Positions 26,540-49,890 are shown, numbered from the stretch's first letter. The stretch is DNA of 64,000 nt from Takakia lepidozioides (GCA_030704615.1 CM060731.1:32860001-32924000), one strand, 5' to 3'. The notes: generated by a model from the letters alone, not told the origin. Translations and numbers: made by a program.

Positions 26540-26577
26540 GAGAAGAGGAGTACACGACTACCTGTCCGAAGGGGCAC

Positions 26578-26904
26578 TGTCAAGTTATTTTACCACTAGT
26601 GTGAAACTAGCTAGGAAATAGCTAGCTTTTACATATTGACATTTGGGATTGGCCCAAGTGTCAATCCAGGGGTCAAGGCAGATTTAGGCCCTGGAGTGGT
26701 TATCTTCACGGCAAGCGCGGGAGGCTCATCTTTCTCGAGTTGAGCCTCACCGCGCCTAGCTATGGCGCCGTAGTGTGGATTCCCCATGGCGTGGGGTGCA
26801 CTTGGCTTGACTTGTATTTGAGTGATGAGGTTATATATGCATGAGTTTATGCTTCAGCTTTGTGAGCTCGCATGAGCTTGTGCTTGTATTCTTCCTCTTT
26901 ATCA
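26578..26904 (+). repeat. D1 5' terminal repeat Y (downstream part of the LTR)
   Basis: Appears identical by eye to 49386-49712. Ends TTATCA and is followed by the self-complementary primer site. Confidence 0.92.
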
Positions 26905-28421
26905 CTCGAGAAAGATGAGCTCGTATCTATGAGTGTAGATACGAGTTAGTTGTAGCACTTGTGGTTTTTGCTTGAGAATGAGAGAAACCAAGTTGTTATG
27001 CAAGGAGCACCGTGGAGCTCTTGGTTGTTAGAAGCGGAGGCGATGTGGGTTACGAGGTGGTAAACCTTGGCATTCGATCTTCAGTTTCAGAGATGAAAGC
27101 ACCATACTGTAGGTAATTCCAGAGCACCTTGATGGTTTCAGATTGTGTACATGCATGAGCAAGCACGATTGGGAAGAGGACCAGTCAAGAGCAGGTTATA
27201 GTGGCTTTGGTGGCAAAGCTGAGAACTGGACTTGGGAATGCGAGCTGTCATTGTGTGAAGGATTGCAAGACCAAGCGAAAGGGCTGATTTGGCTTGGGGC
27301 AAATCAGTGCACTTTGTGGAGTATGGTGAGATTGGGTTTCAATCTCGAGCTTCAGCATTGAGAGGGCTCTTGTCATGGCGAGAGCAGGGCTGGAACAGGA
27401 GCTAAGAGGTGCGGCAAGGCCATGGAATGTGCACCTAGGGTTACAGAGCTTGGAAGAAGAGCTCTTGCACCACAAGAGCAGTGTCTTGTGGCTGGAAATG
27501 TAAGCCTTAGGGTTTCAGGAGCTTGGCAAAGGCTATGGAGTGCTTAGTCTTGTCTTAGAGAGCATCAAGGAGCCAAGGAGCCAAGATAGGGGGCTGATAT
27601 CTCTTGTGTGAAGAGGTTGCATGTGTGGAGCATGTATTCAGCTCATTGAAGCTTCCATCTTCAAGCTTGGAGGGCAAGCAAGGAAGAGGGAAGGGCTGAC
27701 TTCCCTTATGTGAGGGCAATGCATGTGTGGAGCATGCTATCAGCCTGGTGAAGGCTTGCACTTTCAAGTGTGGGAGTGCAAGAAAGGAAGGAAGGGGCTG
27801 GTTTCCCTGTAGGGCATGTGGAGCATGCTGAAGCTTGTATTTTCAGGTTTGTGGGTGCAAGAAATGAAGCAAAGGAGCTGATTCTTTTATGGTGAGAGTG
27901 GGGCATGTGTGGAGCATGCCTTCAGCCCATTGAGGCTCTTGTTTTCAAGCTTTAGAGAGCTAGAACGGAAGGTCTAGGGCTGGTTTCCACTTGGAGTGAA
28001 AGAAAAGCACTTGTAGGGCCTATGTGAGTTGGGGTTTCAACTTCAAGCTTGAAGGGAGCGCAACTCTTGAAGCAGCAGGTGTAGGGGGCTGGAAGAGGCT
28101 CTAAGACAGATGCTATGGCCAAGGAGAGAGCTTGAATGAGTGCTCACAAGGGCTGGGAACCAGCAGGGCTTGGTTGTTTGCCATTGAGTTTAGTGGCGTG
28201 TTTGGGTAGGCTAAGTGAGAAAGAAGGCTTGGTTTGTGGCAACCACCTCATGGCTTAGGGCTACTATGGTGGTGTGTGGGAGCCGAAAGAGCAAGGATAC
28301 CTTGCTGATTTCCTCACAGCCACCATAGCTCGGTGGAAAGAAGCCTAGAGTCCAAGAGACACAAACCCTAGCTTGGCGTGGCTAAACCCCTTGGAGAAAT
28401 GGCTAAACTGCCAGAGCGGCC

Positions 28422-29520
28422 ATGTGTGGGGCTGTGACGGGCTGTGACAGGCTGTGCCCATGGCCTTTGGGGCTGTGATGGGCTGTGAGGGGCTGTGACA
28501 GGCCGTGCCTGAGGCCTTTGAGGCTGTGATGGGCTGTGATGGGCTGTGATGGGCTGTGATAGGCTGTGCCCTGTGCCCTGTGGGGCTGTGACGGGCTGTG
28601 TCAGGCTGTGACAGGCTGTGCCCAGTGGCCTTTGGAGCTGTGACGGGCTGTGCGGGGCTGTGACAGGCTGTGCCCTGAGGCCTGTGGGGCTGTGATGGGC
28701 TGTGACAGGCTGTGCCCATGGCCTTTGGGGCTGTGATGGGCTGTGAGGGGCTGTGACAGGCCGTGCCTGAGGCCTTTGCGGCTGTGATGGGCTGTGACGG
28801 GCTGTGACAGGCTGTGGCAAGCTGTGACAGGCTGTGATGGGCTGTGACAGGCTGTGCCCTGTGCCCTGTGGGGCTGTGACGGGCTGTGTCAGGCTGTGAC
28901 AGGCTGTGCCCAATGGCCTTTTGGGGCTGTGACGGGCTGTGCGGGGCTGTGACAGGCTGTGCCCTGAGGCCTGTGGGGCTGTGACGGGCTGTGACAGGCT
29001 GTGCCCATGGCCTTTGGGGCTGTGATGGGCTGTGAGGGGCTGTGACAGGCCGTGCCTGAGGCCTTTGAGGCTGTGATGGGCTGTGACAGGCTGTGCCCTG
29101 TGCCCTGTGGGGCTGTGACGGGCTGTGTCAGGCTGTGACAGGCTGTGCCCAGTGGCCTTTGGGGCTGTGACGGGCTGTGCGGGGCTGTGACAGGCTGTGC
29201 CCATGGCCTTTGGGGCTGTGATGGGTTGTGAGGGGCTGTGACAGGCCGTGCCTGAGGCCTTTGCGGCTGTGACGGGCTGTGACGGGCTGTGACAGGCCGT
29301 GCCCATGGCCTTTGTGGCTGTGACGGGCTGTGAGGGGCTGTGACAGGCCGTGCCCGAGGCCTTTGGGGCTGTGACGGGCTGAGAGGTGCTGTGACAGGCC
29401 GTGCCTGAGGCCTTTGGGGCTGTGATGGGCTGTGGGCCTGTGGAGGCTGAGGTGTGACCTGTGACAGGCTGTGCCAGTGGCATGTGTGTGACGGCTGTGT
29501 GACCAGTGAGCTGTGTGGGC
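28422..29520. repeat. Higher-order minisatellite built from about 10-bp (G/A)GGCTGTGA(C/T/G) units, in the D1 leader
   Basis: Dozens of GGCTGTG units arranged in about 40-60 bp blocks punctuated by GGCCTTT and GTGCCC. Confidence 0.95.
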
Positions 29521-29782
29521 CTGTGCTGGTCTGTGGTGGCCCGTGTTGACCTGTGGATGGCCTGTGCTGACTCGTGGAGGCACTGGTGGACTAAGGACTG
29601 GCATGTGGTCTGGAAGGCCGAATTTTGAAGCTCGTGGAGGGCGGTTTGAGGAGTATCTTCATGATATTCCCATGGTCATGCAAGTTCAGGTGTAGGCTAT
29701 GTTAGGAACTTAGTATTCCAAACCATAAGCCGCAACAGGTTCTCTACCCGGTTACCTTGTGGAGAGGGGGTTAGGGACATGT

Positions 29783-32700
29783 TCATGACCGGTTGAGTGT
29801 CAACACGGAGGTGCCACTAGTTGCTGGGGACAGTGCCGGTTCGAGCACTAGCGATACTAGTGGGTACACGAGACGAGGTGTGCGGTTTAGGCCACCTTCA
29901 CCTCCTGTGTCTTCTACGGAAGGTTCTGATTCGGATTGTGAATCAGGAGGACTCATACCGGCGGTGCAAGTTGTTTTCTTTGCCATTTGTGGGACACAAT
30001 GGAGGAGATGTATGGAGCTACCAAGGGGCCACGAAGGTACTCTGGGGCGGTGGGCACCATCGAGTTGGATGATTTTATCCAAGAGTTTGATAGTTGGTGT
30101 GATTTGCAGCAAATGCGCAATCCACAACTATTTACGCCTTTCATGGCATGGAAAGGGCTGTTTCAGCACCTTGAGGGGCCGCCTATGGATGATTACCATG
30201 AGTTCAGGCGGGGGCATGAGGTTGAGATCGAGGAGTGGAGGATGTACTGGTCACCCGACTATGTCTCCATCACTAGGGGCACTAGAGCCACGAGGCAGTG
30301 GCTACACCTGCCGCTGCACCGGCAGCTTCAGCAAGCAGCAGTGGGACTGGTGGTACAGTAGCTACGACGTCCACCCAAGCCACTACCGCACCAGCACTAG
30401 CACCCGTGCCTGCCTTCAACCCTGTTGTGGAGTTCTTCGAAGAGTTGAGAGGGAACTACCAAGGGGTGAGGACAGAGAAGTTGCGGAGCTTGCAAGAGTT
30501 CCAACGGAAGCCAACCGAGAGCTTGAGGGAGGCTTTCACTCGCATGAGGCGCTTGATAAATGTAACCCAAGGGGTTACGGAAGCTCAGGCAGTCCAATTC
30601 TGGTATGGGATATTGGACAAGGAGCTGAGGAGAAGGGTGCGGGATGCAACTCTCCTACAAGCGGCCCAACCCACCTTAGCAAATGTGTTTTTGCTGGCAG
30701 AGCGGATAGAGCTCAACATGGTGGAGGAACGAGTGGTCATGGTGGGATTTGCTAAGGAGACACCACGGGGTAGTGGTGCTCCTAGCCAACCACTACCTCA
30801 ACGTGCTCAAGGCAACAAGGGGGCTCAGGTGAAGCTCAGAAGGGCAGAGAGGACCTCAAATGCAGGGGTCTCTCCCTTCATTTGCTGGCCAACAACGGGC
30901 GGATGTGGTGTGCTGGACATGTGGAGGACCCCATGTCAAGAAGGATTGCCCAGAGGGAGGCAAAGGGTCGGCACATGCACAGCCTGCACAGTTGCAGTGT
31001 GGGCATTGTGGCAAGCACGGGCATGGAGAGGCCCAGTGTTATGGTTTGCATCCTGAGTTGCGCCCAGGCCAGTTCCAAGGGAACAATGGTGGCCGGGGCG
31101 AGGTGGAGCAGCCCAGAGAGGACGAGGTGGCCAGCCACGAGGTGCAGGCCAAGGGCAAGCTCAACATGGCCAAGGACGCGAGGTCAGGGTGTTGACCAAG
31201 GCATGGCCAACCGGCTTCAGCAGCTAGAGCAGAGGCTCGCTGCCATGGCTACAGCTCAGGTGGTACCGGCTCTAAGGCCGGATGGTCCACCTCCTGCTCC
31301 TGAGGGAGGAGATATGGGAGGCATGGGATTCATGTGGGAGCAGCACTACCACTAGTGCAGGTGGAGTCTGCTGCAGCCGTGACTCGAGGAGCAGCACGAG
31401 TTCCTGAGCCACGAGGTGCAGAGGTGGAGTTGGATCCACAGCGTGGGGAGGCAAGCCGTCAGGCTAGGCTTCCTCAGTCATTCACATTGGCGGAGACAGT
31501 GTCGACGCCATCCATGCACCTAGTTCTCGCCCGACTGTTACCGAGGCGGAGGTACTATGCCATGGGAGAGCTACACGGGTAGCACCACTACCTAGTGTTG
31601 CCAAGGCTACGGCAGCTAGTGTGCTGCTAGGAGCGGCCACATCTGTGTGCCAGGCTCCATTGTTCTCGGCTACCATGATTGCGACGCCGGGGGTCAAGAC
31701 CAGCTGAGGAGTTCAGGCTGGCAGCTACACTCTGTGAGAGTGGGGAGGTTTACTCATCTTCTGCGGAGATAGTGGGAGGTGTAGTGCCGGAGGGATCCTC
31801 GGATTGAGGGTCAAGACTGCCACGGCGGCGCCATGGCAAGCTGCATCTGCCAGGTTGATGGAGCTGCCAGCTAGGCCAGCCATTTTGAGCGCGCCATGGT
31901 GACACGTGGAGTTGTCATGTTAGACAACCAGGATGGCATTTTCTGTTTTGAGTGACCGGCAGGCAAGAGGTACCGGCCACTGCGAGTCTTGTTGGACTCG
32001 GGAGCTCAGCCACTGATGCTGGGCAGAGCTGCTATTGCAGGCTTGGGCCTCAACGGAGGCGGATATGAGCCTTGTCCTTTCCAGATCAGACGTCTCTGGG
32101 AGGATCGGAGCAGGCTCGGGGCATGACACGGCATGAGTTGGCTATCAGACTACGGCCGGATCACCCTACAGATGGCTCAGTGATGCGAGCCAAGGCCATT
32201 GTGACAGACGTAGTCTCATACGATGTCCTGGTTGGTGGGGCCAGTGTTGTACCCCATGGGCTTCACCCTGGATTTTGGGAGGAGTCAGCTTTCCTATAGC
32301 CTGCATGGCAGTCAGGGGAGGGCCCGGCATGCGCAGCTCCCTGTGACGTTCATAGGAGGAGTTGCGGTTGCCCAGCGAGGCAAGATGCCGACACTAGCAG
32401 CATTCACAGCGGCAGTGAGTTGGCCTAGAGAGTTGCTTGAGGGCAATGCTCATTCAGAGGATGTACCACCTCCGGGAGAGCAGGATGACATGTATGGTAT
32501 GGCGGAGTTGCCTACCATGGTTGCTCAGACTCCATTTGGGGCACGAGCAAGATTTGCAGCGGGATGCTGATCGACGGGTGCACAAGCCTGGGTGGAGGCT
32601 TTTGTACCGTCAGGAGAGGAGGAGAGGTGTGGGATTGCACCAGGACCACCTCAATTGTCCCCATTGGACACACCACCTATTGTGTGGGCAGTCTCCGGAT

Positions 32701-33002
32701 GAAGGCATTTGTCTTCTAGACTTGTTTGGCGGGATCAGCACCGGATTGGCTGCTGTGTTTACAGGCAGGTGTACGAGTTCGGCGTTACCTGTATGTGGAG
32801 AGGGATGAGACTGCACTTACGCGTTTCACTTCGCCATGTTGCTCAGTTGGTGCAGCAGCGGTACCCTGAGTTGTTGTCGGTGTCTGCATTCGTGGATATC
32901 AGCAGGCCTTGCCAGCAGACATTTCGTTGCTGGGGGCGCAGGATTTGGAGCGGGTTGGCTCCATTGATCTGGTAGTGGCAGGTTGGCCCTGCCAAAGGCA
33001 TT
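29783..33002 (+). pseudogene. D1 gag, two zinc knuckles, protease and N-terminal part of the C5-cytosine methyltransferase (frameshifted)
   Basis: Gag ORFs 29987-30361 and 30298-31056. CWTCGGPHVKKDC and CGHCGKHGHGEAQC (30860-31195). LLDSGAQ at about 31990. MTase motif I ICLLDLFGGISTG at about 32705-32750. Motif IV GWPCQ at about 32980-32998. Confidence 0.9.
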
Positions 33003-33783
33003 TGTCGTGCGCATACATATCGCTACACACAACTACATCGCTGTCCAAACCACACCACACATATATGCACAATAAAGTAGTCTAACACAATGATAATGAA
33101 ACTTGAAAGGACACACTCCCAAACAAAGAAATATAAAATCCATCGCTATCACTCTTGAAACTGAAGTCGAGCCAGGGCACCCCAAGCTATGGGGACTCCA
33201 CCCCACAACAACCTATCCCTACATAAGCACACTAAAACTAAACACATGCAGAAGCTCGGTCGCGCAGGCTCAACTCGAGAGAGATGAGCCGCGCGACTGC
33301 CGCTCTCGTGAAGATAAGACGGACCAGGTGTCAAACTAAACTTGACACCTGATTTAACACTTGACCTAAATCCAAGTGTTAAATACAAATAACTAGTTTT
33401 ATGCTAGCTGTTTTCACACTGTGCTTATTTAACTGACAGCTGTCGTGCGCATACATATCGCTACACAACTACATCGCTGTCCAAACGTCCACCATATATA
33501 TGCACAATAAAGTAGTCTACCACAATCGCCCCCCTAGCTGGTGGATAGGTCCCTCTACCTCCAGATAGCTACAAGATGTAATAGCCACAGCCGTACTAAG
33601 TCCTCTATCACTGTCCCTATCGTACTCAAACTCTATAGACCAAGAGGCCGGGTACAAGAGTAGCCCATCGTTAGTCGCCGTCTTGCAATCTGTGAACTTG
33701 AGCCAGGACTTCGTGTATTCAAGGTCTCCTAGTAGCTGGGCCTTGCGTTGCTTGTTAGCCCTCCATGGTTGTATCCACTCCCA

Positions 33784-36700
33784 CTATCCAATGCATTGTG
33801 GACATAACCAATCCCCATCCGGAACCATCTCAAGAGGTGGAGTCAAGCATCCCATATGCCAACCTCTAGAGCATCGATCACACACCCAGCATGGTGGCTG
33901 CCCCTTTAGCAGACCCACACAACATGCACCTCAAACCTGCAGATACCACTGCCAGGTTTGGGTCAATCCTGCCATCGACATTCGGAAGGTGACATGGCGC
34001 ACAATTACGCACATGGTCCTTCCAAGTTATGCCATCCCGACCCTCCAAGACCAAGACGCCTGAGGGCAAGACTCTCGAACCCTCAAAATAACACGTCCTG
34101 CAGTCACATCCAGGGTCGTAGGAGCAGTCTGCTGCAGATAGACATAGTCACCAGGGTTGAATCTCCGAACCCCAGGACGATAGCCCCCACCCACGTATGG
34201 TAGCATACCTCAACGTATCACGGTGTTGTGCAATGGCAAGGTTCTCGAAAGCCATGGGCATGACTCTCTTGAACAACTCTGCACGCTGCTCACATGCACG
34301 TGCCCACACGTCCGGATCGTCAAGGTTAAGAACTGTAGCAGCTTCTCTGCGAATGGATGTAGGCAAATCCGGCTCTCTCGGCCAAAGAGAAGAAAGTATG
34401 GTGAGAAGGAGGCAAGTGATGCTTGCTTGCTGAACCTGTAGCCCATGGCTAACCAGGGTAACTGAAGGTCCCAATCTCCTAGGTGTCCCTTCTGCAAGCC
34501 ATACTTGCGCAAACCCCTCTTTACTGTCTGAACAACTCTCTCTGCCAAGCCATCGGCTCAGGATGATCCCGAGAAGTGGTGCGGTGGTCTATCAAGGCCT
34601 TGTCACACAAAGCCTGAAACTCCCCCAAGAACTCTCTCCCTTGGTCCGTGAGTACCTCAGCTGGAGCACCGAATCGGCTAAGCACACAATCCAGAATGCA
34701 TACGCAGCTCCCTCACTAGCCTTATCAAATCCACTTGGAGAAGTGCTCCACCATCACCAACACGTACTTGTTGTGGCGCATGGTCAGTGGCAACGGCCCT
34801 GCGAAGTCAAGACTCCACCTGTAGCCCAATCCCATGATCGGAAGAGGGTGCAATTGTGGAGTAGGGGCGTTGAATGAAGCACGCACCCTGTCACACACCA
34901 TGCACCTAGCCACAAATTGTTGCACCTCTGTGTGCATACCACGCCACCAATACTGCCCCTGCAGTAGACTATGAGTGCGTCGCACCCCAAAATGCCCCAA
35001 CTCCTCATGGGCATGCCGCACTAACCGTGCCCGCTGTGTTGGGTGAGGCACAATCCTCACTCGACCATCCCCACACTCGGAGCAGGTGTGTCCCCTCCCA
35101 CCTGAACCTCTTGGCTCGTTGTAGATCCGATCCCTCTCCTTGGCAGTCATAGTGGCTGCCGTGTCTCCACTGCGGAGGTAGTCCAACACAACTGAATCCT
35201 CATGTATATCTTTGGCGCACCCTGCTCATTGCTGGCCTCAGGGTCCTCAGACACTTGATCTACAGTCATCCCTGTTGTAGGTCCAACCTGGCCTTCCGCT
35301 GCCAAGATACACAGAAATGCAGATGCATGCCATCCGGGCACCATCTCCTCGTCCGTCTCACCATGCCACCGAGCTCCAGTGTCATCCTGCTGGCTCGTGC
35401 ATGGATTGCGACTCAACCCATCTGCATTTCGATTGACCAAACCCGGTCGATGCACCACCTGAAAGTCATACTCTTGAAGGATGAGTGCCCACCGTGCAAG
35501 CTTCCCCGTAAGCTTGTCTGACTCCATCAACCACTTGAGTGGTTGGTGATCCGTGACAAGGGTGAAGAGATTGCCGTATAATAGCACCTGAAGTGTGCCA
35601 CGGCCCACACTGCAGCTAAGCATTCTCCCTCATATGAGCTATACTTAGACTCTGCAGCATTGTTCGAGCGGCTAGCATAAGCCACTACGAACTCTCTTCC
35701 CTCATCATCCACCTGTGTGAGCACCGCTCCAAGCCCCAGCATGCTCCAATCTGTATGCAGCTGAAAAGGACCCCCCTGATAGGTCGTCTCAAGATGGGCG
35801 CCGAGGTCAACCTCGCCTTGAGCTCTTGAAAAGCTTGTTCTTGCTCATCTTCCCACTGCCACTCCTGGTCCACCTTGGTCAGCTTGGTTAGAGCCTTTGC
35901 AATGGCACTAAATCCCTTAACAAACCGTCTGTAATAGTTTGCTAACCCCATGAAAGCTCGAACTCGGCTCACATCCGTGGGGCGTGGAACCTGTGCAATG
36001 GACTCTACCTTAGTCTGCTGTACCCCCAATCCTCCAGGATATATCATGTGACCCAGATACTCAATCTGGTTGTGGAAAAACTTGCACTTGCCCGGATGTA
36101 ACTTCAATCCGTGCGTCCTCAAGCGCTCAAATACCCCCTGAAGGTGTCTCTCATGCTCCTCCACCGTAGCACTAAAGATGATGATGTCATCTATGTAGCA
36201 CCGAGCAAACTCCACCCCTGCTAGAATCCTGTCCATGACTCTTTGAAACTCAGCGGGAGCGTTTTTAAGCCCAAATGGTAAGAACCGCCACTGGTATAGG
36301 CAATCCTTCCCGTGCTCATTGATCCCCCAGAATGCCGTCTTTTGCTTATCCGCCTCCTTGATCGGCAACTGGTGATATCCGGATCGTAAATCCAACGTGC
36401 TAAAGACCTTGGAATGCCCAATGGCATCAAAGATCTCCTCTGGTGTTGGCATGGCATACCTATCGGACTTGGTCTGACGATTTACAGGCCGGTAATCACC
36501 GCACATACGTCTCCGTCCAATTGCCATAGACATCCTTCTTAGCTGGCATCACTGTGGCTGAAGCATACTCTCCACCAGAGAGCTCCACCAAACCTGCCTC
36601 CCAGAGATCTTGAGTCCTCATCTGAATCAAAGACCTCTCCATGTCACTGTATCTATAGGGTCTCCGAAAGATTGGCGTGTCAGTGGCCAACTCAATACGG

Positions 36701-36895
36701 ATCTCTTGACCCTTCAGTGCTCCCAAGTCCTTCAAACTGAAGGCAAAGCAATTCCTAAAGCCCTCAGGAACCGCCGTATACGTCGTCTCTCTCTCCTCCG
36801 GTGACAATGGGTCCAATGTCAGGCTCCCAATTGTCCTCCGTAACTGCAACCTTAAGTCCAGTGGGCTTAGAGGTAGAGGACGCGTCCCGTGGTTG
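33784..36895 (-). pseudogene. D2 RT-RNaseH-integrase-PHD finger (frameshifted)
   Basis: CYIDDIII (35685-36533), TDHQPL (35147-35623), HEELGHFG...CMVC...SLDFAGP (34725-35189), PHD region about 33790-33930. Confidence 0.92.
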
Positions 36896-39800
36896 CTATG
36901 CTGCAACCTCTTGAGCAGTACCCCCTTCCTGCTCAGTCAATGACAAGCCTCATCATCCTGCCCCATCATCTCATCATTGAGAACCTCCTCATCCCGAGAA
37001 GAATCCCCAACCTCATCCATCACAGCTGCCTTCGCTGCCAACTCCCTCTGAACCTCGAGCACCTCCCACATGTGCCATGGATGTCTACACCTCGTGGTCC
37101 TCACCGCTCGCCCCCACTCGCTGCCTGTACCGTCTCGGTAGGCAGAGAGACCGTCAAGGGAAGTGCACTCCGCACTCTACGTTGCTCAGCCATAGCCAAG
37201 CTGACAATCCAGGTCAAGCAATTGAGATCCATTGCTTGCCCCAACACCTGACGACGTGATGCCTCAGAAAAGAGAAGGCACCGCCGTGGTCCCAGTGGAA
37301 AACCCCCATAGCCCGCTCTCGCTCGTCGGCATTAGGCTCCACTAACTGCTGCAACTGAGCATCCCACAGGAGGCCAGGTCCACCATCCCGAAAAGCATGG
37401 GATCCTGGGAAGCTGAGCAGTGTAGGTAATGCTGCTCGTGTTGACCCACCCTGTTGACCACTGCCAAAGGCGAACGGTCATCGTGTCTCACACGTTGAGA
37501 CTGCCTTCCTGTGTCCAAAATGCCATCCACGGTGAGGTGTGCTGGCCGCTGCACCCCATCAAATGCACGCTTGAGCAGTGCGGGTGGCATCAAGTTAGTC
37601 CACCATAGTCGTGGACGATGAGCCCGTGACCCCACTGCAGCTGCATCCAGCAACACTGCTGACCCAAGCCACGACCGGACTTGATGCACACTGGCCATCA
37701 CCCTGGCCCGAGAATCACCCATCAGTGGTACATTCTCCAAGATGTATGCTGGAGATACAGCTTGATGAAGCTGCAAGCAGCGCGCAAAATCCGCACCATC
37801 TCCCAAAACAGACCCGTCCTCGAGTCTCGCAATCCATTGCCATGCCCGGCTGATGAATGCCCTTGGCAGGGCCAACCTGCCACTATCAGATCAATGGAGC
37901 CAACCTGCTCCAAATCTTGCGCCCCAACAAGGAAATGTCTGCTGGCAAGGCTGTTGGTATCCACGAACTGCAGACACAGGCAACAAGTCAGGGTACTGCT
38001 GTACCAACTGAGCCACATGGCGCAGTGAGACGCGTCGTGCAGTCTCATCCCTCTCCACATACAGTCGCCTTACCCGCACACCTGCTGTAGCACAGCAGCC
38101 AATCCGGTGCTGATCCGCCAAACAAGTCCAGAAGGCAAATGCCTTCATCCGGCCGCTGCCACACAAGAGGTGTGGTGTCCAATGGCGACAACTGAGGTGG
38201 CCCTGGTGCAATCACCGCACTCTCCTCCTCTCCTGACGGTACAAAAGCTTCTACCCAAGCTTGTTGCACCCGTCCATCAGCAGCTTGCTGCAAATCCTTG
38301 CTCGTACCCCACAACGGAGTGTGAGCAACCATGGCAGGCAACTCCGCCGTACCATGCATGTCATCCTGCTCTGCTGGAGGTGGCACATCCTCTGCATGGG
38401 CATTGCCTTCCAGCAACTCTCCAGGCCAACTAACTGCAGCTGTAAGGCGGCTAGTGTTGGCATCTTGCCCCGCTGGGCAGCTGCAATACCCCCATGAATG
38501 TCACAGGGAGCTGTGCACGGCGACCATCCCCTGACTGCCATCCAGGCCTGTAGGATGCTGACTCCTCCCAGAAATCCAGGGTGAAGCCCATGGGGTATAA
38601 CACTGCCCCACCAACGAGGACATCGTAAGAGACCGCGTCTGTCACAATGGCCTTGGCTCGCATCACTGAGCCATCTACAGGATGATCCGGCTGCAGTCTA
38701 ATAGCCAACTGATGCCGTGTCATGCCGCGAGCCTGCTCTGATCCTCCCAGAGATGTCTGTATCTGGAAAGGACAAGGCTCCATATCCGCCTCCATGAGGC
38801 CCAAACCTGCAATAGCAGCTCTGCCCAACATCAGTGGCTGAGCTCCTGAGTCCAACAAGACCCGCAGTGGCCGGTACTTCTTGCCTGCCGGTCCACTCAA
38901 AGTGAAAATGCCTCCCTGGTTGTCTAACAAGACAACTCCAGGTGTCACCATGGCGCGCTCAATGGCTGGCCTAGCTGGCAGCTCCGTCAATCTGGCAGCT
39001 GCAGCTTGCCAGGGCGCTGCCGTGGCAGTCTTGACCCTCAAATCCGAGGATCCCTCTGCCACTACACCTTCCACTAACTCCGCAGAAGATGAAGTGACCT
39101 CTCCACTCTCGCAGAGTGTTGCTGCTAGTCTGAACACTGCAGCTGGTCTCACTCCCGGCGTCGCAATCATGGTCGCCGAGAACAGTGGGGCTTGACACAC
39201 AGAGGTGGCTGCTCCCAATAACACACCGGCTGCACTAGCCTTGGTAGTAGCAGTGCTGCACGGTAGCTCTCCCAATGGCATAGTAACCTCCGCCTCGGTA
39301 ACAGTCGGGCGAGAACTAGGTGCCATGGATGGCGTTGACACTGTCTCCGCCAAGGTGAATGACTGAGGCAGCCTTGCCTGACGGCTTGCCTCCCCACGTT
39401 GTGGATCCAACTCCACCTCTGCACCTCGTGGCTCAGGAACTCGTGTGCTCCTCGAGTCACGGCTGCAGCAGACTCCACCTGCTCTAATGGTAGTGCTGCT
39501 CCGCACATGAATCCCATTCCGCCCATATCTCCTCCCTCAGGAGCAGGAGGTGGGCCATCCCGCCTGGGAGCCGGTACCGCCTGAGCTATAGCCATGGCAG
39601 CGAGCCTCTGCTCTAGCTGCTGAAGCCGATTGGCCATGCCTTGGTCAACACCCTGACCTCCGCGTCCTTGGCCATGTGGAGGTTGCCCTTGGCCTGCACC
39701 TCGTGCCCGACCACCTCGTCCTCTTTGGGCTGGTCCACCTCGCCCCCGGCCACCATTGTTCCCTTGGAACTGGCCTGGGCGCAACTCAGGATGCAAGTCA

Positions 39801-41081
39801 TAACACTGGGCATCTCCATGCCCATACTTGCCACAATGCCCAACTGCAACTGTGCAGGCTGTGCTTGTGCCGGCCTTCTGCCACTCTCTGGGCAATCTCT
39901 CTTGACATGGGGTCCTCCACATGTCCAACATATCACCCCTGGTTGCTGTTGGCCTGCAAAAGATGCCACGGGCCTCTGCACCTGAGGTCCCCTGTAAGCT
40001 CCATGGAACTTGGGCTGGGCAACCTTGCCCCCTGACCACGCTGTTGGGCAGTCCCTTGTGCTGTGGGCTGACAGCTGTGCCCCGTACAGGCATGTCCTTA
40101 CCAAATCCAATTGTAACAACTCGCTCGCTCCTCCACCATGTTGAGCTCAATCCGCTCAGCCAGCAGAAACACATCTGCTAATGTGGGTTGGGCTGCTTGT
40201 AACAGGGTTGCATCTCGCACCCTTCTCTTGAGCTCCTTGTCCAGAATTCCATACCAAAACTGGATTGCCTGAGCTTCAGTAACCCCTTGGGTCACACTTA
40301 TCAAGCGCCTCATACGAGTGTACGCCTCTCGCAGGCTCTCACTGGGTTTGCGCTGGAAGTCTTGCAAACTTCGCAGCTTCTCTGTCCGTACACCTTGGTA
40401 GTTCCTCCGCAACTCCTGGAAGAACTCCACCACCGGGTTGAATCTTGGCAAATGTGTTGTAGTCGTGGCAGGAGAAGCACCTTTTGAACTGGTACCACCT
40501 TCAGAAGTACCAGCACTACTTGCTCCACTACTAGTGCTGGCAGTGGGAGCTATTGGTACTGATGCTACTGGTCGCGTCGTGCCTCGAGTAATGGAGACGT
40601 AGTCAGGTGACCAATACATCCTCCACTCCACTCCTCAATCTGCTTCATGTCCTCGCCTGAACTCGTGGTAATCGTCCATAGGCGGGCCTTCCAAATGCTG
40701 GAACAGTCCCTTCCACGCCATGAATGGGGTGAATAGCTGTGGATTGCGCATCTGCTGCAAATCACACCAGCTGTCGAACTCCTGGATAAAGTCATCCAAC
40801 TCGATTGTGCCCACAGCTCCAGAGTACCTACGAGGCCCCCTTGGTAGCTCATACATCTCCTCCATGTCGTCCCACAACAATGGCGAATGAAAGTGCACAC
40901 CTGTTGATGAAGCCTCCGAGTCTGTGTCTGACGCTACAGTAGTTGAGGGTGGCGGTGAAGGTGGTCTGAACCGAATACCTCGTCTTGTGAACCCACTCTC
41001 ACTGTCACTGCTTGTAGCCGTACTCCCCTCAAAACCCTTGGGTAACTCCGTAATGACACTCACAATGTGCACCTCCTCCAC
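36896..41081 (-). pseudogene. D2 gag-protease-DNMT3-like methyltransferase (frameshifted, all motifs present)
   Basis: Gag 40098-41081, RVLLDSGAQ (38451-39506), LLDLFGG (38045-38416), DLIVAGWPCQGHS (37722-38060), YILENV and AHRPRLWWTN (37342-37875). Confidence 0.92.
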
Positions 41082-41596
41082 GTGACACTATAAGGCTCTA
41101 GTACTAATCTAATAGTGACACGGTGGGCACCTGTTGCAGTCTAAGGGTCATATCCCAATGGCTCAGGGCACCTGCACCTGCATCCACCGCAAGAACTCCT
41201 ATGGTTGGCTGGTCATCAACCCAGCCTCACCATAGAAGAAACACTGGTGGTCTTGCTGGTCATCACTCCAGCCTCACCACCGACAGCATACTCTAGGATT
41301 GACCGGTGATCAAATCCGGCCTAATCCCTATGAAAGCAAGCGCCCACACAAAACCAACATGGCGCACAGTCAAGCATGCAGGTGTTGGGGGGGATCCAAA
41401 CACAAGAAATCAAAATCAACACCCCCACACCAAAATCCAGCTGCAATGTTGATCCTGCAGAATATCCCAGCCCAAAACCCCGACTGACTGGCCTCCACCA
41501 AGAGAGGCTTTGGCAACTACAAGTACAAGGTAATGAAAATAGTACAGAGATGGAGGGGAAGAATAGAAGCCCGCCCAAGCAAGATCTAATCCTGAT

Positions 41597-42319
41597 CTAT
41601 GCTATCAACTTCCAGACTTCTCTCAAAGTGCCTCGCTCTGCTTGATGGTAAGGTGTAGGAGGTATAACAATGTCCAGAAACCTGCCACTAACCTTGTCCC
41701 AAACTACAGTAGCTCGCTCTAACCAACCCTCCTCCTCTTTCTGCCAGGTAGAGACAAAGCAGTACTCCCCTATCTCCCGCTCACTGAACACTAAAGAAAA
41801 CAAAGGTAGGGTCTGATAGTCTCTCAACTCGAAAGCTTTGAGACGGTTGCGGGTGTCCTTCATTGCGATGACTGCATCGCCTTCAAACAGAACAAACTTG
41901 TCCTCGCTAATGAACCCCCGTTCGTGGTTGCCTTGTGCAGAGCGTGTCCGTCTGCAACACTGTCTAATTGCACAAACTTGTGTAGCTCCTGCTCCTCTGC
42001 TCCAGTACACCACGGCCTTGTGACTGAACACCTTGGTCCCCGGGGCTGTCTTTGGCTGTGTTCCAAGCCTAGCTTTCACCCACTTTGGTATTTCACCTAC
42101 AGCTGCAGAACTGCTGGCTCCAACAGAGTTCTGACTGTCCAAGGCGATATTGAGGCCCTCAATGCCAACTACAGCAGTCTGTTGTCTACTGCTAATGCCT
42201 GACTCCCAGTATGCAATCAACTCGTCCAACTGTTCTCCACTCAAATCAGTCTGAGTTCCTTGGGAAACATAAATCGTCCCCTTGTGTGCACAGACTAAGA
42301 GAAGAGACCTGCCCTTCAA
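41597..42319 (-). CDS. Uncharacterised 240-codon open frame in the D2 leader, upstream of gag
   Basis: Stop-free with globular-protein-like composition. No family recognised and the start codon is uncertain. Confidence 0.4.
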   Translation of the reverse strand: MKGRSLLLVCAHKGTIYVSQGTQTDLSGEQLDELIAYWESGISSRQQTAVVGIEGLNIALDSQNSVGASSSAAVGEIPKWVKARLGTQPKTAPGTKVFSHKAVVYWSRGAGATQVCAIRQCCRRTRSAQGNHERGFISEDKFVLFEGDAVIAMKDTRNRLKAFELRDYQTLPLFSLVFSEREIGEYCFVSTWQKEEEGWLERATVVWDKVSGRFLDIVIPPTPYHQAERGTLREVWKLIA

Positions 42320-42596
42320 TTACGTCCTCATTTCCCCCAGCCATGCAAGGAGTACATCCACCAATTTGTCTCTCATATAGACCAGCACAGGTTCTAGAGA
42401 CAGGATTGTGGATCTTTCATGGCACACTCACACTCTAAAAATTCCATAGATTTTTAGTAGAGTCCCAAAAACAGAAACCAGGTCTAGATAGGTAGATTTC
42501 CCCTTTCTGCAGCTATCCCCTCAAAAACTGAGTCAAACGGAGCTCATTTGACAAAGATATGACCAACCAGGCTCTTAAACATTTAAATTAGATCAA

Positions 42597-42635
<39 letters not shown>

Positions 42636-42954
42636 CCAAAACGCTTTTGCCATTACAACCTGTTCCCAGGTTATCTACGAGTTCCCGAGGTCGTTCATGT
42701 AGTTCTCACAGGTTCCCTTACCAATGTCCACAGAGCTTGAGCTGCCAAAAAAAAAAACGGGATCTTTGCACCACGGCCAAGGAAGGGGCCGCAGCAAGCC
42801 GCGTGCATGCCATTGCTGTCGCCATCTCTTTCCCGCTTCCTCACCTAGCCCAAGCTTGCAAACTCTGAGTGGGCTCTATTGCGAGTTTCTCCTCGCCGAG
42901 CAGATGCCAGCACAGCGACGACAGATCGAACGGACGGCCAATCTTCGAACCTAA

Positions 42955-43239
<285 letters not shown>

Positions 43240-43639
43240 TGATTTGGTGTCCGCCAGACTTATGCTTCCTGGCCCCCAGCCGAATAGAGAGAACGCTGCC
43301 CCAACAATTGTAGATTCCGCTTCGCTTATTTGAAGACGATGCTTGGCAAAATCTTATCTCAGTAAGTGATATTAAGAAACTTGGCCATGGCTTCCACGGC
43401 ACCTGGTGGCCACTGCAGCTCTACACCAATCCACCTGATATTGATGTACTGCGGTTCCCGAGCAGTGGTCTCAGAGAACCGTTCCCTGCCCGGCTGCGGT
43501 CACCTTCTCCACAGCACTGCCGCTAGAGCTGCATGAGCCTCAGTGTAATTTGGATACTTCCGGACAAGGCCTTGTATCAGTTTCTTGGCCTCCCCCAATC
43601 TGTCGAGCTGAAAGAGAACCAGAGCTTACTTGAGTCGGT

Positions 43640-43905
43640 ATCTGAAATCCTGGGCCGCCTCCTCAAACTTCAGAAGGGAGACCCTCACACTCCCCCGGTT
43701 GGACCAGACACTGGCATTTGCGGAATCCTCATCTATCAAAGCTGAAAACAATTCTTCAGCAGTTTCCAGGTTTCCAGCAACCGCCGCCCTGAGAGCACCC
43801 TGCAGCTTGGGATTTTCAACGTCTTTGAGCTTTACTCTCGTTGAAACTGCTGCTTTTGCAGGAAGATCAACATTGCCCAACCTTAGTGCTCCAAGTGCCA
43901 CAGAA
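43640..43905 (-). pseudogene. Fragment of a plant TPR-repeat protein captured in D2
   Basis: AEELFSALIDEDSANASVWSNRGSVRVSLLKFEEAAQDF fits a TPR consensus. Confidence 0.7.
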
Positions 43906-44856
43906 GGCTGAATAACAGCTGGCGTCAGGCAGTTACTGACGAGTGCCCTGCGATACCGGCATTACCATCTCTTCCTTCTCTGCCTAGCCGCTCCTCAGCT
44001 ACAGACCTCAGGCTTCGTTGAAACTTGAGCTGGGTAATACCCTGATTCTTGGGCTCTCCATAAGCGGTACCCTTGCTCACAGGCCTCTTCAATCCAAAAA
44101 AACGGGCTGGCTTGGAGTCACCCACGGCAAGCCCTTCATTTCCACTCCACGGCAGCCCAGAGACGATGACAGGATCGCTGCAGAAGAATCTAGGCACGAA
44201 AAAGAGCTAACCTCTAACCCGTCGTTACTTGATGAATCAATCAGGCAGCATTCATCTCCAGTAGCCTGAGCAAGATCTCTACTAAACGCGTGACTCCAGC
44301 AAGATCCGCTAGCAGTAACTGCAAGTGAAGTATCCACCGCAAGCTTAATAGCTTTCTGCCGCTCCGGAATGGTTAAACACTCAGTTGAATCATTCACAGA
44401 CCTGTGTCACACCAAGGTATATTATAATAGTGCTAAAACAAACATTATATCTAGCTTAGCACTAGAAAACTAGATGGCTGATCTCTCTCGAGTGATAATG
44501 AAGCTTGAAAGGACATACACTCCCAACACAAGAAATATATATAAAATCCATCGCTATCACTCATTGATTGAAACTGAAGTCGAGCCAGGGGCACCCCAAG
44601 CTATGGGGACTCCACCCCACACAACCCTGTATCCCTACATAAGCACACTAAAACCTAAACACATGCAGGAGCTCGGTCGCGCAGGCTCAACTCGAGAGAG
44701 ATGAGCCGCGCGACTGCCGCTCTCGTGAAGATAAGACGGACCAGGTGTCAAACTAAACTTGACACCTGATTTAACACTTGACCTAAATCCAAGTGTTAAA
44801 TACAAACAACTAGTTTTATGCTAGCTGTTTTCACACTGTGCTTATTTAACTTGACA

Positions 44857-45815
44857 CATTCATCAGCCGGGCATGGCAATGGATTGCGAGACTCGAGGTC
44901 GGGTCTGTTTTGGGAGATGGTGCGGGTTTTGCGCCACTTGCAGCTTCATCAAGCTGTATCTCCAGCATACATCTTGGAGAATGTGCCACTGATGGGCGAT
45001 TCTCGGGCCAGGGTGATGGCCAGTGTGCATCAAGTCCGGTCGTGGCTTGGGTCAGCAGTGTTGCTGGATGCAGCTACAGTGGGGTCACGGGCTCATCGTC
45101 CACGGCTATGGTGGACTAACATGATGCCACCCGCACTGCTCAAGCGTGCATTTGATGGGGTGCAGCGGCCAGCACATCTCACAGTGGATAACATTCTGGA
45201 CACAGGGAGGCAGTCTCAACGTGTGAGACACGATGACCGTTCGCCTTTGGCAGTGGTCAACAAGGTGGGTCAACCACGAGCAGCATTACCTACACTGCTC
45301 AGCTTCCCAGGATCGCATGCTTTCCGGATAGTGGACCTGGCCTCCTATGGGATGCTCAGTTGCAGCAGTTAGTGGAGCCTAATGCTGACGAGCGTGAGCG
45401 GGCAATGGGTTTTACCACTGGTACCACGGCGGTGTCGTCTCTTTCTGAGGCATCACGTCGTCAAGTGTTGGGGCAAGCAATGGATCTCAATTGCTTGACC
45501 TGGATTATCAGCTTGGCTCTAGCTGAGCAACGCAGAGTGCGGAATACACTTCCCTCAATGGTCTCTCTGCCTACCGAGACGGTACAGGCAGTGAGTGGGG
45601 GCGAGCATATGAGGACCACGGGGTGCATGCATCCATGGCACACGTGGGAGGTGCTCGAGGTTCAGAGGGAGTTGGCAGCCAAGGCGGCTGTGATGGATGA
45701 GGTTGGGGATTCTTCTCGAGTTGAGGAGGTCCTCAAGGATGAGATGATGGGGCAGGATGATGCCTTGTCATTGACTGAGCAGGTAGGGAGTACTGCTCAA
45801 GAGGTTGCAGCATAG
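44857..45815 (+). pseudogene. D1 methyltransferase C-terminal part (motifs VI, VIII, IX, X), ending at TAG 45813-45815
   Basis: HSSAG...SGLFWE...YILENV...LDAATVGSRAHRPRLWWTN...ERERAMGF...RRQVLGQAMD parallels DNMT3 (LFENV, AHRARYFWGN, EMERVFGF, RQRLLGRSW). Confidence 0.92.
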
Positions 45816-48800
45816 CAACCACGGGACGCGTCCTCTACCTCTAAGCCCACTGGACTTAAGGTTGTAGTTACGGAGGACAATTGGGAGCCTGACATTGGAC
45901 CCATTGTCACCGGAGGAGAGAGACGACGTATACGGTGGTTCTTGAGGGCTTACAGAAATTGCTTTGCCTTCAGTTTGAAGGACTTGGGAGCACTGAAGGG
46001 TCAAGAGATCCGTATTGAGTTGGCCACTGACACGCCAATCTTTCGGAGACCCTATAGATACAGTGACATGGAGAGGTCTTTGATTCAGATGAGGACTCAA
46101 GATCTCTGGGAGGCAGGTTTGGTGGAGCTCTCTGGTGGAGAGTATGCTTCAGCCACAGTGATGCCAGCCAAGAAGGATGTCTATGGCAATTGGACGGAGA
46201 GACGTATGTGCGGTGATTACCGGCCTGTAAATCGTCAGACCAAGTCCGATAAGTATGCCATGCCAACACCAGAGGAGATCTTTGATGCCATCGGGCATGC
46301 TAAGGCCTTTAGCACTTTGGATTTACGATCCGGATATCACCAGTTGCCAATCAAGGAGGCGGACAAGTAGAAGACGGCATTCTGGGGGATCAATGAGCAC
46401 GGCAAGGATTGCCTATATCAGTGGCGGTTCTTACCATTTGGGCTTAAGAATGCTCCTGCAGAGTTTCAGAGAGTCATGGATAGGATTCTAGCAGGGGTGG
46501 ACTTTGCTTGGTGCTACATAGATGAGCATCATCATCTTTAGTGTTACGATGGAGGAGCATGAGAGACACCTTCAGGTGGTATTGGAGCGCTTGAGAGCGC
46601 ACGGATTGAAGTTGCATCCGGGGAAGTGCAAGTTTTTCCACAACCAGATTGAGTATCTGGGTCACATGATATATCCTGGAGGATTGGGGGTACAGCAGAC
46701 TAAGGTAGAGGCCATTGCACAAATTCCACGCCCCACGGATGTGAGCCGAGTTCGAGCTTTCATGGGGTTGGCAAACTATTATAGACGGTTTGTCAAGGGA
46801 TTTAGTACCATTGCAAAGGCTCTAACCAAGCTGACCAAGGTGGACCAGGAGTGGCAGTGGGAAGATGAGCAGGAACGAGCTTTTCAAGAGCTCAAGGCGA
46901 GGTTGACCTCGGCGCCTATCTTGAGACGACCTATCAGGGGGCGTCCCTTTCAGCTGCATACGGATTGGAGCATGCTGGGGCTTGGAGCGGTGCTCACACA
47001 GGTGGATGATGAGGGAAAGAGTTCGTAGTGGCTTACGCTAGCCGCTCGAACAACGCTGCAGAGGCTAAGTACAGCTCATATGAGGGAGAGTGCTTAGCTG
47101 CAGTGTGGGCCGTGGCACACTTCAGGTGCTATCTATACGGCAATCTTATCACCCTTGTCACGGATCACCAGCCACTCAAGTGGTTGATGGAGTCAGACAA
47201 GCTTACGGAGAAGCTTGCACGGTGGGCACTTATACTCCAGGAGTATGACTTTCAGGTTGTGCATCGACCGGGTTTGGTCAATCGGGATGCGGATGGATTG
47301 AGTCGCAATCCATGCATGAGCCAGCAGGATGACACTGGAGCTTGGTGGCATGGTGAGACGGACGAGGAGATGGTGCCGGGATGGCACGCATCTGCATTTT
47401 TGTGTATCTTGGCATCGGGAGGTCAGATTGGACCTACAACAGGGATGACTGTAGACGGAGTGTCTGAGGACCCTGAGACTAGTGATGAGCTAGGTGGTGC
47501 CAGAGATATACATGGAGGATTGGCTGTGTTGGACTACCTCCGCACGGGAGACACGGCAGCCATTGTGACTGCCAGGGAGAGGGATCGGATCCTGCAACGA
47601 GCCAAGAGGTTCAAGTGGGAGGGGATACACCTACTTCGAGCGTGGGAGGATGGTCGGGTGAGGATTGTGCCTCACCCCACACAGCGTGCACGGTTAGTGC
47701 GGCATGCCCATGAGGAGTTGGGGCATTTTGGAGTGCGACGCACTCACAGTTTACTGCAGGGGCAGTATTGGTGGCGTGGTATGCATACAGAGGTGCAACA
47801 GTTTGTGGCTAGGTGCATGGTGTGTGACAGGGTGCGTGCTTCATTCAACGCCCCTACACCACAGTTGCATCCTTTACCTATCATGGGATTGGGCTACAGG
47901 TGGAGTCTTGACTTCGCAGGACCGTTGCCACTGACTATGCGCCACCACAGATATGTGTTGGTGATGGTGGAGCACTTCTCCAAGTGGATTGAGTTGGTTC
48001 CATTGCCTGACAAGGCTAGTGAGGGGGCTGCGTATGCATTCTTGGATCGTGTGCTTAGCCGATTTGGTGCTCCAGCTGAGGTACTCACGGACCAAGGGAG
48101 AGAGTTCTTGGGGGAGTTTCAGGCTTTGTGTGATAAAGCCTTGATACCACCGCACCACTTCTCGGGATCATCCTGAGGCCGATGGCTTAGCAGAGAGAGT
48201 TGTTCAGACGGTGAAGAGGGGTTTGCGCAAGTATGGCTTGCAGAAGGGACACCTAGGAGATTGGGATCTTCAGGTTCCTTGGTTAGCCATGGGCTACAGG
48301 TTCAGCAAACAAGCATCACTTGCCTCCTTCTCACCATATTTCCTTCTCTTTGGCCGAGAGCCGGATTTGCCTGCAGCCATTCGTAGGGACACTGCTCAAG
48401 TCCTTAACCTTGACGATCCGGACGTGTGGGTACGTGCATGTGATCAGCGTGCAGAGTTGTTCAAGAAAGTCATGCCCATGGCTTTTGAGAACCTTGCCAT
48501 TGCACAGCACCGTGATACGTTGAGGTATGCCACTATACGTGGTAGAGGATATCGTCCTGGGGTTCGGAGGTTTAGCCCTGGTGACTATGTTTATTTGCAG
48601 CAGACTGCTCCTACGACTCTGGATGTTACTGCAGGGCGTGTTATTCTGAGGGTTCGAGAGGTGTTGCCCTCAGGGGTCCTGATCTTGGAGGGTCGGGATG
48701 GCATGACTTGGAAGGACCATGTGCGTAATTGTGCGCCATGTCACCTTCCCAATGTCGATGGCAGAGTTGACCCAAACTTGGCAGTGGTACCTGCAGGTTT

Positions 48801-48948
48801 GAGGTGCATGCTCTGTGGGTCTGCCAAAGGGGCAGCCACCATGCTGGTGTGTGATCGATGCTCAAGGGGTTGGCATATGGGATGCTTGACACCACCTCTT
48901 GAGAAGGTTCCTGACGGAGATTGGTTGTGTCCACACTGCTTGGGATAG
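45816..48948 (+). pseudogene. D1 RT-RNaseH-integrase-PHD finger (few disruptions)
   Basis: RT 45942-47028, RNaseH and integrase HHCC/DDE 47028-48176, C-terminal CMLC...CDRC...WHMGC...WLCPHC (C4HC3 PHD) in 48211-48948. Confidence 0.93.
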
Positions 48949-49207
48949 TGGCAGTGGACATGACTGGAGGCAGCTAACAAGACATGGGAGGCCAAGCTCA
49001 TAGGAGTCAATACATGAGATCCCAAGCTCAAGTTCACAGGTTGCAAGACGGCGACTAACGATGGGGCAACTCTTGCACCCGGCCTCTTGATCTATCGAGT
49101 TTGAGTGTAGTAGGGATAGTGGTGGAGGACTTAGTGAGGCTATGGTCACTATCACATCTTGTGGCTACCTGGACTTAGAGGGACCTAAGCACCAGCTAGG
49201 GGGCGAT

Positions 49208-49890
49208 TGTGGACTAGTGACTGCCATAGTGGGCAGCGTAGTGGCAGCCTAGTGACTGACTAGTTGTAGCCTAGTGGTTGGACTAGTGGCTGGACTAGTG
49301 GTATACTAGTGTGTGGTGTGCACATGTGTTGTGTGGGTTTTGGACAACGATGTAGTTGTGTAGCGATATGTATGCGCACGACAGCTGTCAAGTTATTTTA
49401 CCACTAGTGTGAAACTAGCTAGGAAATAGCTAGCTTTTACATATTGACATTTGGGATTGGCCCAAGTGTCAATCCAGGGGTCAAGGCAGATTTAGGCCCT
49501 GGAGTGGTTATCTTCACGGCAAGCGCGGGAGGCTCATCTTTCTCGAGTTGAGCCTCACCGCGCCTAGCTATGGCGCCGTAGTGTGGATTCCCCATGGCGT
49601 GGGGTGCACTTGGCTTGACTTGTATTTGAGTGATGAGGTTATATATGCATGAGTTTATGCTTCAGCTTTGTGAGCTCGCATGAGCTTGTGCTTGTATTCT
49701 TCCTCTTTATCATTGTGTGGACTAGTGACTGCCATAGTGGGCAGCGTAGTGGCAACCTAGTGACTGACTAGTTGTAGCCTAGTGGTTGGACTAGTGGCTG
49801 GACTAGTGGTATACTAGTGTGTGGTGTGCACATGTGTTGTGTGTTTTTGGACAACGATGTAGTTGTGTAGCGATATGTATGCGCACGACA
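49208..49890 (+). repeat. D1 3' terminal array X-gc-Y-t-X (one complete LTR 49208-49712 plus an extra X)
   Basis: Direct repeats read from the sequence. X/Y junction is the palindrome GACAGCTGTC (49380-49389). Confidence 0.92.

Follow-up and report, generated by a model that had tools for sequence, protein, structure and literature searches.

The closest described relative of the element reported here is KnitGypsy-Dnmt3 of the green alga Klebsormidium nitens, which combines Gypsy domains with an intronless DNMT3 under purifying selection and has DIRS-like repeats (de Mendoza et al., 2018; PMC5890265). The same paper describes the SymbioDIRS-Dnmt3 elements of dinoflagellates and reports de novo CG methylation in yeast by DNMT3 domains from dinoflagellate retrotransposons (PMC5890265). 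Why a transposon should carry a host-silencing enzyme has been an open question since 2018, the sole Gypsy case being an algal family of low copy number whose enzyme tested negative in yeast. We analyzed a stretch of 64,000 nt from Takakia lepidozioides (GCA_030704615.1 CM060731.1:32860001-32924000; hereafter, the window), and self-comparison of this window revealed two nested Ty3/Gypsy elements in opposite orientation, which we call copy A and copy B. With moderate confidence, we read them as two copies of a non-flowering land-plant Ty3/Gypsy family whose first frame encodes Gag, a protease and a DNMT3-type methyltransferase, an enzyme that likely methylates the element's own new complementary DNA (cDNA) in or near the particle.

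In both copies, the domain order is gag, zinc knuckle, protease, DNMT, a TAG stop followed by CAACCA, reverse transcriptase (RT), RNase H, HHCC/DDE integrase and a PHD finger. Copy B (11.85 kb) sits within the DNMT of copy A, a few bases past the catalytic Cys codon, which gives the following arrangement:

26578-49890, plus strand: copy A, whole element, including nested copy B
33003-44856, minus strand: copy B, whole element
32698-33002, plus strand: first part of the copy A DNMT3-like domain (motifs I-IV), up to the insertion of copy B
44861-45540, plus strand: DNMT3-like domain of copy A, motifs VI-X
37180-38150, minus strand: DNMT3-like domain of copy B, motifs I-X, with 8 frameshifts as assembled

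An initial annotation of this DNA had placed the methyltransferase between protease and RT, a position borne out in both copies by Pfam and domain scans, and had drawn the feature at 32700-45815, a span that proved too short, as the elements extend far beyond both limits. The gag-protease-RT-RNase H-integrase order with a DDE integrase is that of Ty3/Gypsy elements, and TG...CA ends, a target duplication, a primer site and a purine tract are likewise present, but two complete identical terminal long terminal repeats (LTRs) are not, the ends being A and B-A-B as described below.

The window family is most likely the land-plant branch of the KnitGypsy-Dnmt3 kind, a link that rests on architecture, since no named Klebsormidium sequence was among the matches. 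Both have Gypsy domains together with an intronless, non-permuted DNMT3-like domain, DIRS-like split repeats (Fig. 4c legend of PMC5890265) and purifying selection (Ka/Ks <0.2 in the alga as reported there, 0.21 here). They differ in that the algal DNMT lies in one open reading frame (ORF) with RT according to the authors, whereas the window family has a stop with a readthrough motif between gag-protease-DNMT and RT, and in that the window family belongs to a land plant, in which it seems to be abundant; the self-priming site, 4-bp duplication and junction palindrome set out below go unmentioned in the passages describing the algal element (PMC5890265). SymbioDIRS-Dnmt3 likewise has a retroelement-borne DNMT3 within A-coding-B-A-B repeats, but is described with a tyrosine recombinase, in contrast to the DDE integrase, target duplications and Gypsy RT found here. 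EpiLTRs/DAM-LTRs are also reported as Gypsy-like elements with DNA methyltransferases of their own (bioRxiv 10.64898/2026.05.21.726589); their DNMT, however, is sister to DNMT4 and is accompanied by an adenine methylase and a chromodomain, and the preprint's account sets them apart from Gypsy-DNMT3 elements. We found no land-plant description of such elements in the literature searched (mostly non-subscription papers), where the description in print comes only from a green alga, and the relevant passages of later papers mention only "streptophytes," citing or naming the 2018 work. Tools requiring two full LTRs would miss elements of this form, which may explain why there is no land-plant description. 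What is new here is the set of complete, probably young and apparently abundant copies, the likely self-priming site and the candidate readthrough stop.

The initial annotation had reported ordered C5-methyltransferase motifs in both copies, and all of the named motifs were found, with motifs I, II, IV (Cys), VI (ENV), VIII, IX and X in canonical order. On the plus strand, copy A reads LDLFGGI (32716), VERD (32795), GWPCQ (32981), ENV (44977), RAHRPRLWWTN (45088), ERERAMGF (45390) and RRQVLGQAM (45456); on the minus strand, copy B reads LDLFGG (38131), VERD (38058), GWPCQG (37877), ENV (37737), RAHRPRLWWTN (37626), ERERA, a break and GF (37324), and RRQVLGQAM (37256). Two motifs that had been assigned to both copies are each complete in only one of them: GWPCQG stands in copy B and reads GWPCQR in copy A, while ERAMGF stands in copy A and falls in the broken motif IX of copy B. 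When 29 of the window's 61 ORFs were scanned, two scored above the curated cut-off of the methyltransferase profile PF00145 (E = 3.5e-11 and 2.4e-5).

Several comparisons address the type of enzyme. A profile built from 78 relatives scored DNMT3A at 98 bits, DNMT3B/C at 75-88, DRM at 49-60, M.HhaI at 39 and DNMT2 at no more than 27, and the domain is not a DRM because it is unpermuted, with motifs running in order from I to X. The structure model of a natural relative, 68% identical (predicted local distance difference test score 94.7), is a predicted complete DNMT3 catalytic domain fold; only DNMT3A/B/C appeared among the 30 matches listed by Foldseek for this model (best E 2e-19), and in the structural alignment the element domain is ~20-23% identical to DNMT3A/B. 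Profile and fold thus both rank DNMT3A/B over DRM and bacterial enzymes, as expected for the DNMT3 type, with DNMT1/CMT and DNMT2 likewise less close, and the catalytic residues proposed for the family (the Cys, the Glu of ENV and the two Arg of motif VIII) are conserved at 90% or more across the 78 relatives. The domain belongs to the same catalytic family, with the same motif order, as host PpDNMT3b (PMC6453930, in the parts describing that enzyme) and animal DNMT3A/B, but the host enzymes are encoded by exon-rich genes with accessory domains, whereas the element carries an intronless polyprotein module.

We then consider whether the domain is maintained. Between copies A and B, with codons close to breaks masked, the ratio of non-synonymous to synonymous substitution rates (dN/dS) of the DNMT was 0.205 (95% bootstrap 0.10-0.40; 238 codons), compared with values for RT of 0.17, integrase of 0.15 and RNase H of 0.07; the linkers and protease ranged over 0.37-0.55. 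The comparison across copies that the annotation had proposed as a check thus gave a DNMT value, 0.21, that resembles that of RT (0.17) and is not that of neutral evolution. Common DNMT variants in family contigs comprised 14 synonymous and 10 non-synonymous changes (p = 0.0007; 24 variants scored of 33 taken, nine near breaks having been dropped, from 40 of 61 rows). By these substitution measures, the DNMT domain is under purifying selection.

Short-read contigs from four runs of four studies show a gap at six or more of the eight copy B DNMT breaks, among the 12 rows listed (7 more exist), and the stretches holding the remaining two breaks carry two gaps in contigs that are otherwise letter-identical; the A repeats of copy B show 10 gap events vs. 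3 substitutions. Given the contig gaps at the breaks and the gap excess in these repeats, we infer that most of the frameshifts are long-read assembly errors, or at least not family-wide. Summed contig depth in run X1, which is not copy number, was 5,600-37,000 over the element vs. 4-9 over host fragments captured by copy B, and depth over the DNMT in short-read contigs was similar to that over RT and integrase, which agrees with the expectation that the domain is present in family copies. The summed depth suggests a family copy number of hundreds to thousands.

A search with the window's 155-residue open piece returned 40 proteins among 840 candidates. The 20 that were species-named were all from bryophytes (15 Marchantia polymorpha, 3 Calypogeia fissa, 1 Sphagnum troendelagicum and 1 Riccia sorocarpa), and several relatives have gag, protease and all DNMT motifs in a single frame. 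A young, abundant land-plant family, together with apparently intact Marchantia relatives annotated as ordinary genes, makes the question of why a transposon carries such an enzyme testable. With a natural relative as query, 269 clusters were found (E up to 1e-30). Among 200 domain-bearing proteins, ~40 place the DNMT after gag/protease or before RT, five named ones among them being from Closterium, and 42 read RT-DNMT-integrase, with Scenedesmus as the sole named one; these relatives in Scenedesmus and Closterium, more distant than those in bryophytes, suggest that capture of the DNMT is far older than one algal lineage. As a separate observation, proteins P0094-P0243 form a large, mostly unnamed set of Gypsy polyproteins with a DNMT3-like domain between RNase H and integrase, one of them named (Scenedesmus sp. 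PABB004), and polyproteins of this arrangement were not found in the literature searched.

In the DNMT tree, both window copies join bryophyte sequences (support 1.0) inside a protease-DNMT group with Closterium (0.88). This tree was built with FastTree from 159 sequences and 321 columns, all from elements or prokaryote-like, after sequences with <80% profile coverage and five near-duplicates had been dropped. In the RT tree, unlike the DNMT tree, the window and Marchantia RTs adjoin a chlorophyte-type group (0.98) and not Closterium, a placement that is tentative given the thin outgroup of two window Gypsy RTs. Twelve loci from metagenome contigs, 34-51% identical and lacking any match to RT or integrase, served solely as outgroups, and viral contigs gave no match. 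The annotation had also held that the family occurs in a land plant, and here the captured fragment of a TPR gene in copy B is informative: it is closer to land-plant groups (58-63% identity to named proteins of lycophytes, ferns, mosses, liverworts and gymnosperms) than to Closterium (46%). In its own tree the fragment is not nested in any of the well-supported clades of mosses, liverworts, ferns or gymnosperms, and its position has weak support. Judged from the sequence, a host among the non-flowering land plants has good support, and elimination based on this one pseudogene gave hornwort or lycophyte as no more than a guess.

The boundary between the DNMT and RT is marked by an in-frame stop in each copy:

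36890-36898, minus strand: in-frame TAG plus CAACCA of copy B, a type I readthrough motif
45813-45821, plus strand: in-frame TAG plus CAACCA ending ORF1 (gag-protease-DNMT) of copy A, with pol in the same frame

In both copies the bases after the stop match CARYYA perfectly and the downstream pol is in frame, as in type I readthrough. UAG-CARYYA is described as the type I readthrough motif of tobamoviruses (PMC5382211), and a passage elsewhere cites the type I motif for LTR-element gag-pol junctions as well (PMC3441728). Seven of 16 relatives end 94-98 residues past motif X, and the window ORF1 ends 113 past it. From motif and frame, the stop after the DNMT is likely leaky. Ribosomes would mostly halt at the TAG, and RT, RNase H and integrase-PHD would be made by occasional readthrough; because the DNMT sits before the stop, it would then be made at the level of Gag.

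Both copies share the layout A, internal region, purine tract, B, two bases, A, B (split repeats, A...B-A-B), and 4-bp target duplications flank each of the two. The parts are as follows:

26574-26577, no strand: target-site duplication of copy A, left (4 bp; partner 49891-49894)
26578-26904, plus strand: repeat A1 of copy A (TG...CA)
26724-26740, plus strand: likely self-primer stretch in A1 of copy A, an exact 17-bp reverse complement of the primer-site position
26904-26920, plus strand: non-tRNA primer-binding site of copy A (likely self-priming)
29999-32345, plus strand: gag, zinc knuckle and protease of copy A, frameshifted as assembled
45816-48948, plus strand: pol part of copy A, with RT, RNase H, an integrase showing HHCC and rve core, and a PHD finger at the C terminus (48805-48939)
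49194-49206, plus strand: purine-rich tract directly before B1 of copy A (likely plus-strand primer)
49207-49383, plus strand: repeat B1 of copy A
49380-49389, no strand: 10-bp palindrome at the B1/A2 junction of copy A
49386-49712, plus strand: repeat A2 of copy A
49713-49890, plus strand: repeat B2 of copy A (3′ end, ...CA)
32999-33002, no strand: target-site duplication of copy B (4 bp; partner 44857-44860), within the copy A DNMT just past the catalytic Cys
33003-33090, minus strand: repeat B2 of copy B (element 3′ end)
33091-33438, minus strand: repeat A2 of copy B
33435-33444, no strand: palindrome of 10 bp where B1 meets A2 in copy B (CA, two bases, TG), at which the integrase may cut
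33441-33525, minus strand: repeat B1 of copy B, immediately preceded by a purine-rich tract (~33526-33540)
33793-36895, minus strand: pol part of copy B, with RT, RNase H, DDE integrase and PHD
38490-40865, minus strand: gag, zinc knuckle and protease of copy B
44477-44493, minus strand: primer-binding site of copy B, complementary to a stretch of its A1 that runs down from 44702, with pairing preserved by a compensatory change when compared with copy A
44493-44856, minus strand: repeat A1 of copy B (element 5′ end)

Copy A is probably young, since its A repeats match at 328/328 aligned bases (one flanking base included) and its B repeats at 172/174, although assembly polishing could have evened them.

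The sequence that directly follows A1 can pair, as a reverse complement, with part of A1 itself, over 17 bp perfectly in copy A and 13 bp in copy B, and a compensatory change separates the copies; the longest such self-complements in shuffled sequence were 12 for copy A (2000 shuffles) and 10 for copy B. This pairing makes the primer site likely one of self-priming, not of tRNA priming. Priming from the element's own RNA rather than tRNA is described for the Ty3/Gypsy elements of the Tf1/Sushi group and the plant Tcn1 clade (PMC6317226), which differ from the window family in having, as described there, ordinary LTR pairs and a chromodomain where the latter has split repeats, a PHD finger and a DNMT. 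The self-primer stretch (26718-26746, and the matching part of copy B's A1) is flanked by short inverted arms, and it could therefore either fold into a local hairpin or pair with the primer site. There are no tRNA genes in the window.

The 10-bp palindrome (CA, two bases, TG) was found only at the two B/A junctions in the 64 kb. For the integrase of foamy virus, cleavage of palindromic 2-LTR junctions has been reported (PMC1180852), and a comparable route may be considered for the window family. The minus strand would self-prime from the transcript's 5′ end and the plus strand from the purine tract before B, giving cDNA with B-A at each end; the ends would be joined (A2|B2 junction), and the DDE integrase would make a staggered cut in the B/A palindrome, leaving CA ends with a 2-base overhang, as is usual for processed ends. 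Joining of the ends followed by an integrase cut between B and A would yield the integrated A...B-A-B form with its 4-bp duplication, and we infer that the repeats are arranged as expected if a circular cDNA is opened at the palindrome it carries and then inserted. The combination of a DDE integrase and split repeats points to integration from a circle, a route that has long been under debate for retroviruses.

PAT/Ngaro retrotransposons, of the DIRS order, have A...B-A-B split direct repeats and are thought to pass through a circle intermediate. The window family differs from them in having a purine tract, a primer site and 4-bp duplications as LTR elements do, and we rejected its membership of the DIRS order, as no tyrosine recombinase was detected in the 29 ORFs scanned and target duplications are present.

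What would the enzyme do in such a cycle? Self-methylation of cDNA was proposed for dinoflagellate DIRS elements in the sections of de Mendoza et al. that discuss them (PMC5890265), and by analogy the DNMT most likely methylates the element's own new cDNA in the particle. The protease would release the DNMT inside the particle, and a methylated new copy would enter chromatin pre-marked like host repeat DNA, or methylation would shield unintegrated cDNA.

Several observations weigh against cDNA self-methylation or the model around it. Neither DNMT is one open frame as assembled, with eight frameshifts in the domain of copy B and five in that of copy A; the DNMT of copy A is physically split by copy B, and the family contigs cannot establish the break-free state of these two particular copies. 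The dN/dS rests on one copy pair, which is a mosaic (dS 1.3 in gag, 0.1 in the C-terminal half of the DNMT). With regard to the stop, two of the 16 relatives run into RT, four end at other distances and three have no detectable motif X, some being partial gene models, and the stop context is known from the window only, the relatives being judged by their protein ends. The circle model predicts further integrated forms, and both window copies are A...B-A-B. KnitGypsy-Dnmt3, the sole tested member of its kind, gave no methylation in yeast, a result that the authors call inconclusive in their account of the assay (PMC5890265). Finally, the element is not more depleted of CpG (0.49-0.55) than two of three neighboring mobile elements (0.41 and 0.42; the third, 0.91), and because its depletion does not exceed theirs, no element-specific CpG/CHG depletion footprint was seen in the window relative to these neighbors.

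Among the alternatives to cDNA self-methylation, the one that survives best, although we think it unlikely, is that the DNMT acts after integration or in trans, methylating the insertion site, nearby chromatin or other copies, perhaps aided by the PHD finger, and so tuning silencing of the family. A PHD finger does close the integrase (E 4e-11 in the Pfam scan), expression at Gag level would give surplus enzyme, and host DNMT3b is described as a de novo and CHH enzyme in moss heterochromatin (PMC6453930, in the part on that enzyme). Nevertheless, the DNMT is in the Gag frame before the stop, so that the bulk of the enzyme would be made without an attached PHD finger, and its place between protease and RT would suit release in the particle.

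More doubtful still is a non-catalytic or non-DNA role, in which the domain would bind nucleic acid in the particle, serve as a decoy for host DNMT3 partners or methylate RNA. The inactivity of the algal domain in yeast (PMC5890265, as reported for that assay) is in keeping with such a role, as is the occurrence of EC for PC at motif IV in many distant relatives (72 EC and 68 PC among the 200 proteins). Against it stand the conservation of the catalytic Cys, Glu and Arg residues in the 78 sequences, the complete DNMT3 catalytic fold predicted for the relative, and the family profile, with which DNMT2 scores far below DNMT3.

We regard it as highly improbable that the domain is a passenger, a host DNMT3 retrocopy captured by chance and decaying neutrally, even though copy B captures pieces of host genes and both DNMT domains are broken as assembled. 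The low dN/dS, the RT-like depth of the DNMT compared with the low-copy captured genes, and a DNMT position that is the same in liverwort, Sphagnum and Closterium relatives largely exclude it. Just as remote is the idea that the inverted pair is an assembly artefact (a fold-back read or mis-join), for which the apparent richness of the assembly in indel errors might speak, and which is largely excluded because the copies differ (gag protein 83% identical, A repeats ~70-78% in DNA, distinct leaders), each has its own target duplication, and the DNMT of copy A resumes exactly after the duplication of copy B.

Beyond the window, we tentatively propose a broader picture. An ancient green-lineage clade (chlorophytes, Zygnematophyceae, bryophytes and the present host) may have kept its own DNMT3 throughout plant evolution, with a young land-plant branch of hundreds to thousands of copies in which the DNMT would be packed at Gag stoichiometry via a leaky stop, the cDNA methylated before insertion, and integration achieved from a 2-LTR circle cut by the DDE integrase at the built-in palindrome.

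The leaders of the two copies hold the following further features:

28423-29535, plus strand: tandem-repeat array in the 5′ leader of copy A
41597-42319, minus strand: open frame of 240 codons in the leader of the copy B subfamily, a multi-copy leader at a depth about half that of the core
42670-44400, no strand: captured low-copy host-gene fragments in copy B, with a kinesin motor piece (42849-43240, plus) and an uninterrupted TPR-gene coding piece (43362-43961, minus)

The copy A array is GC-rich, with units of ~10 and ~52 bases, and copy B lacks it. The 240-codon frame gave no Pfam, atlas or homologue match (homologues searched at lengths 132-420). The captured pieces lie between the first repeat and the leader of copy B, and the TPR piece has an in-frame loss of 79 codons; they are taken as genomic because one 772-base short-read contig covers the kinesin piece and part of the TPR piece. 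Their capture looks like mRNA capture.

Outside the two copies, an older LTR pair (15780-16321 and 51021-51544; 90% alike) surrounds copy A together with a stretch of Gypsy RT/integrase and another Gypsy element, whose repeats lie at 19898-20198 and 24148-24465, forming a deep nest. The region 52989-60634 contains scattered direct and inverted repeats and an ORF (57005-57388, minus strand) that matches PPR repeats, and is possibly a mobile element with PPR pieces. Long interspersed nuclear element fragments lie at both window ends (1823-4197 and 60914-63657) and have a 277-base stretch in common at 93%.

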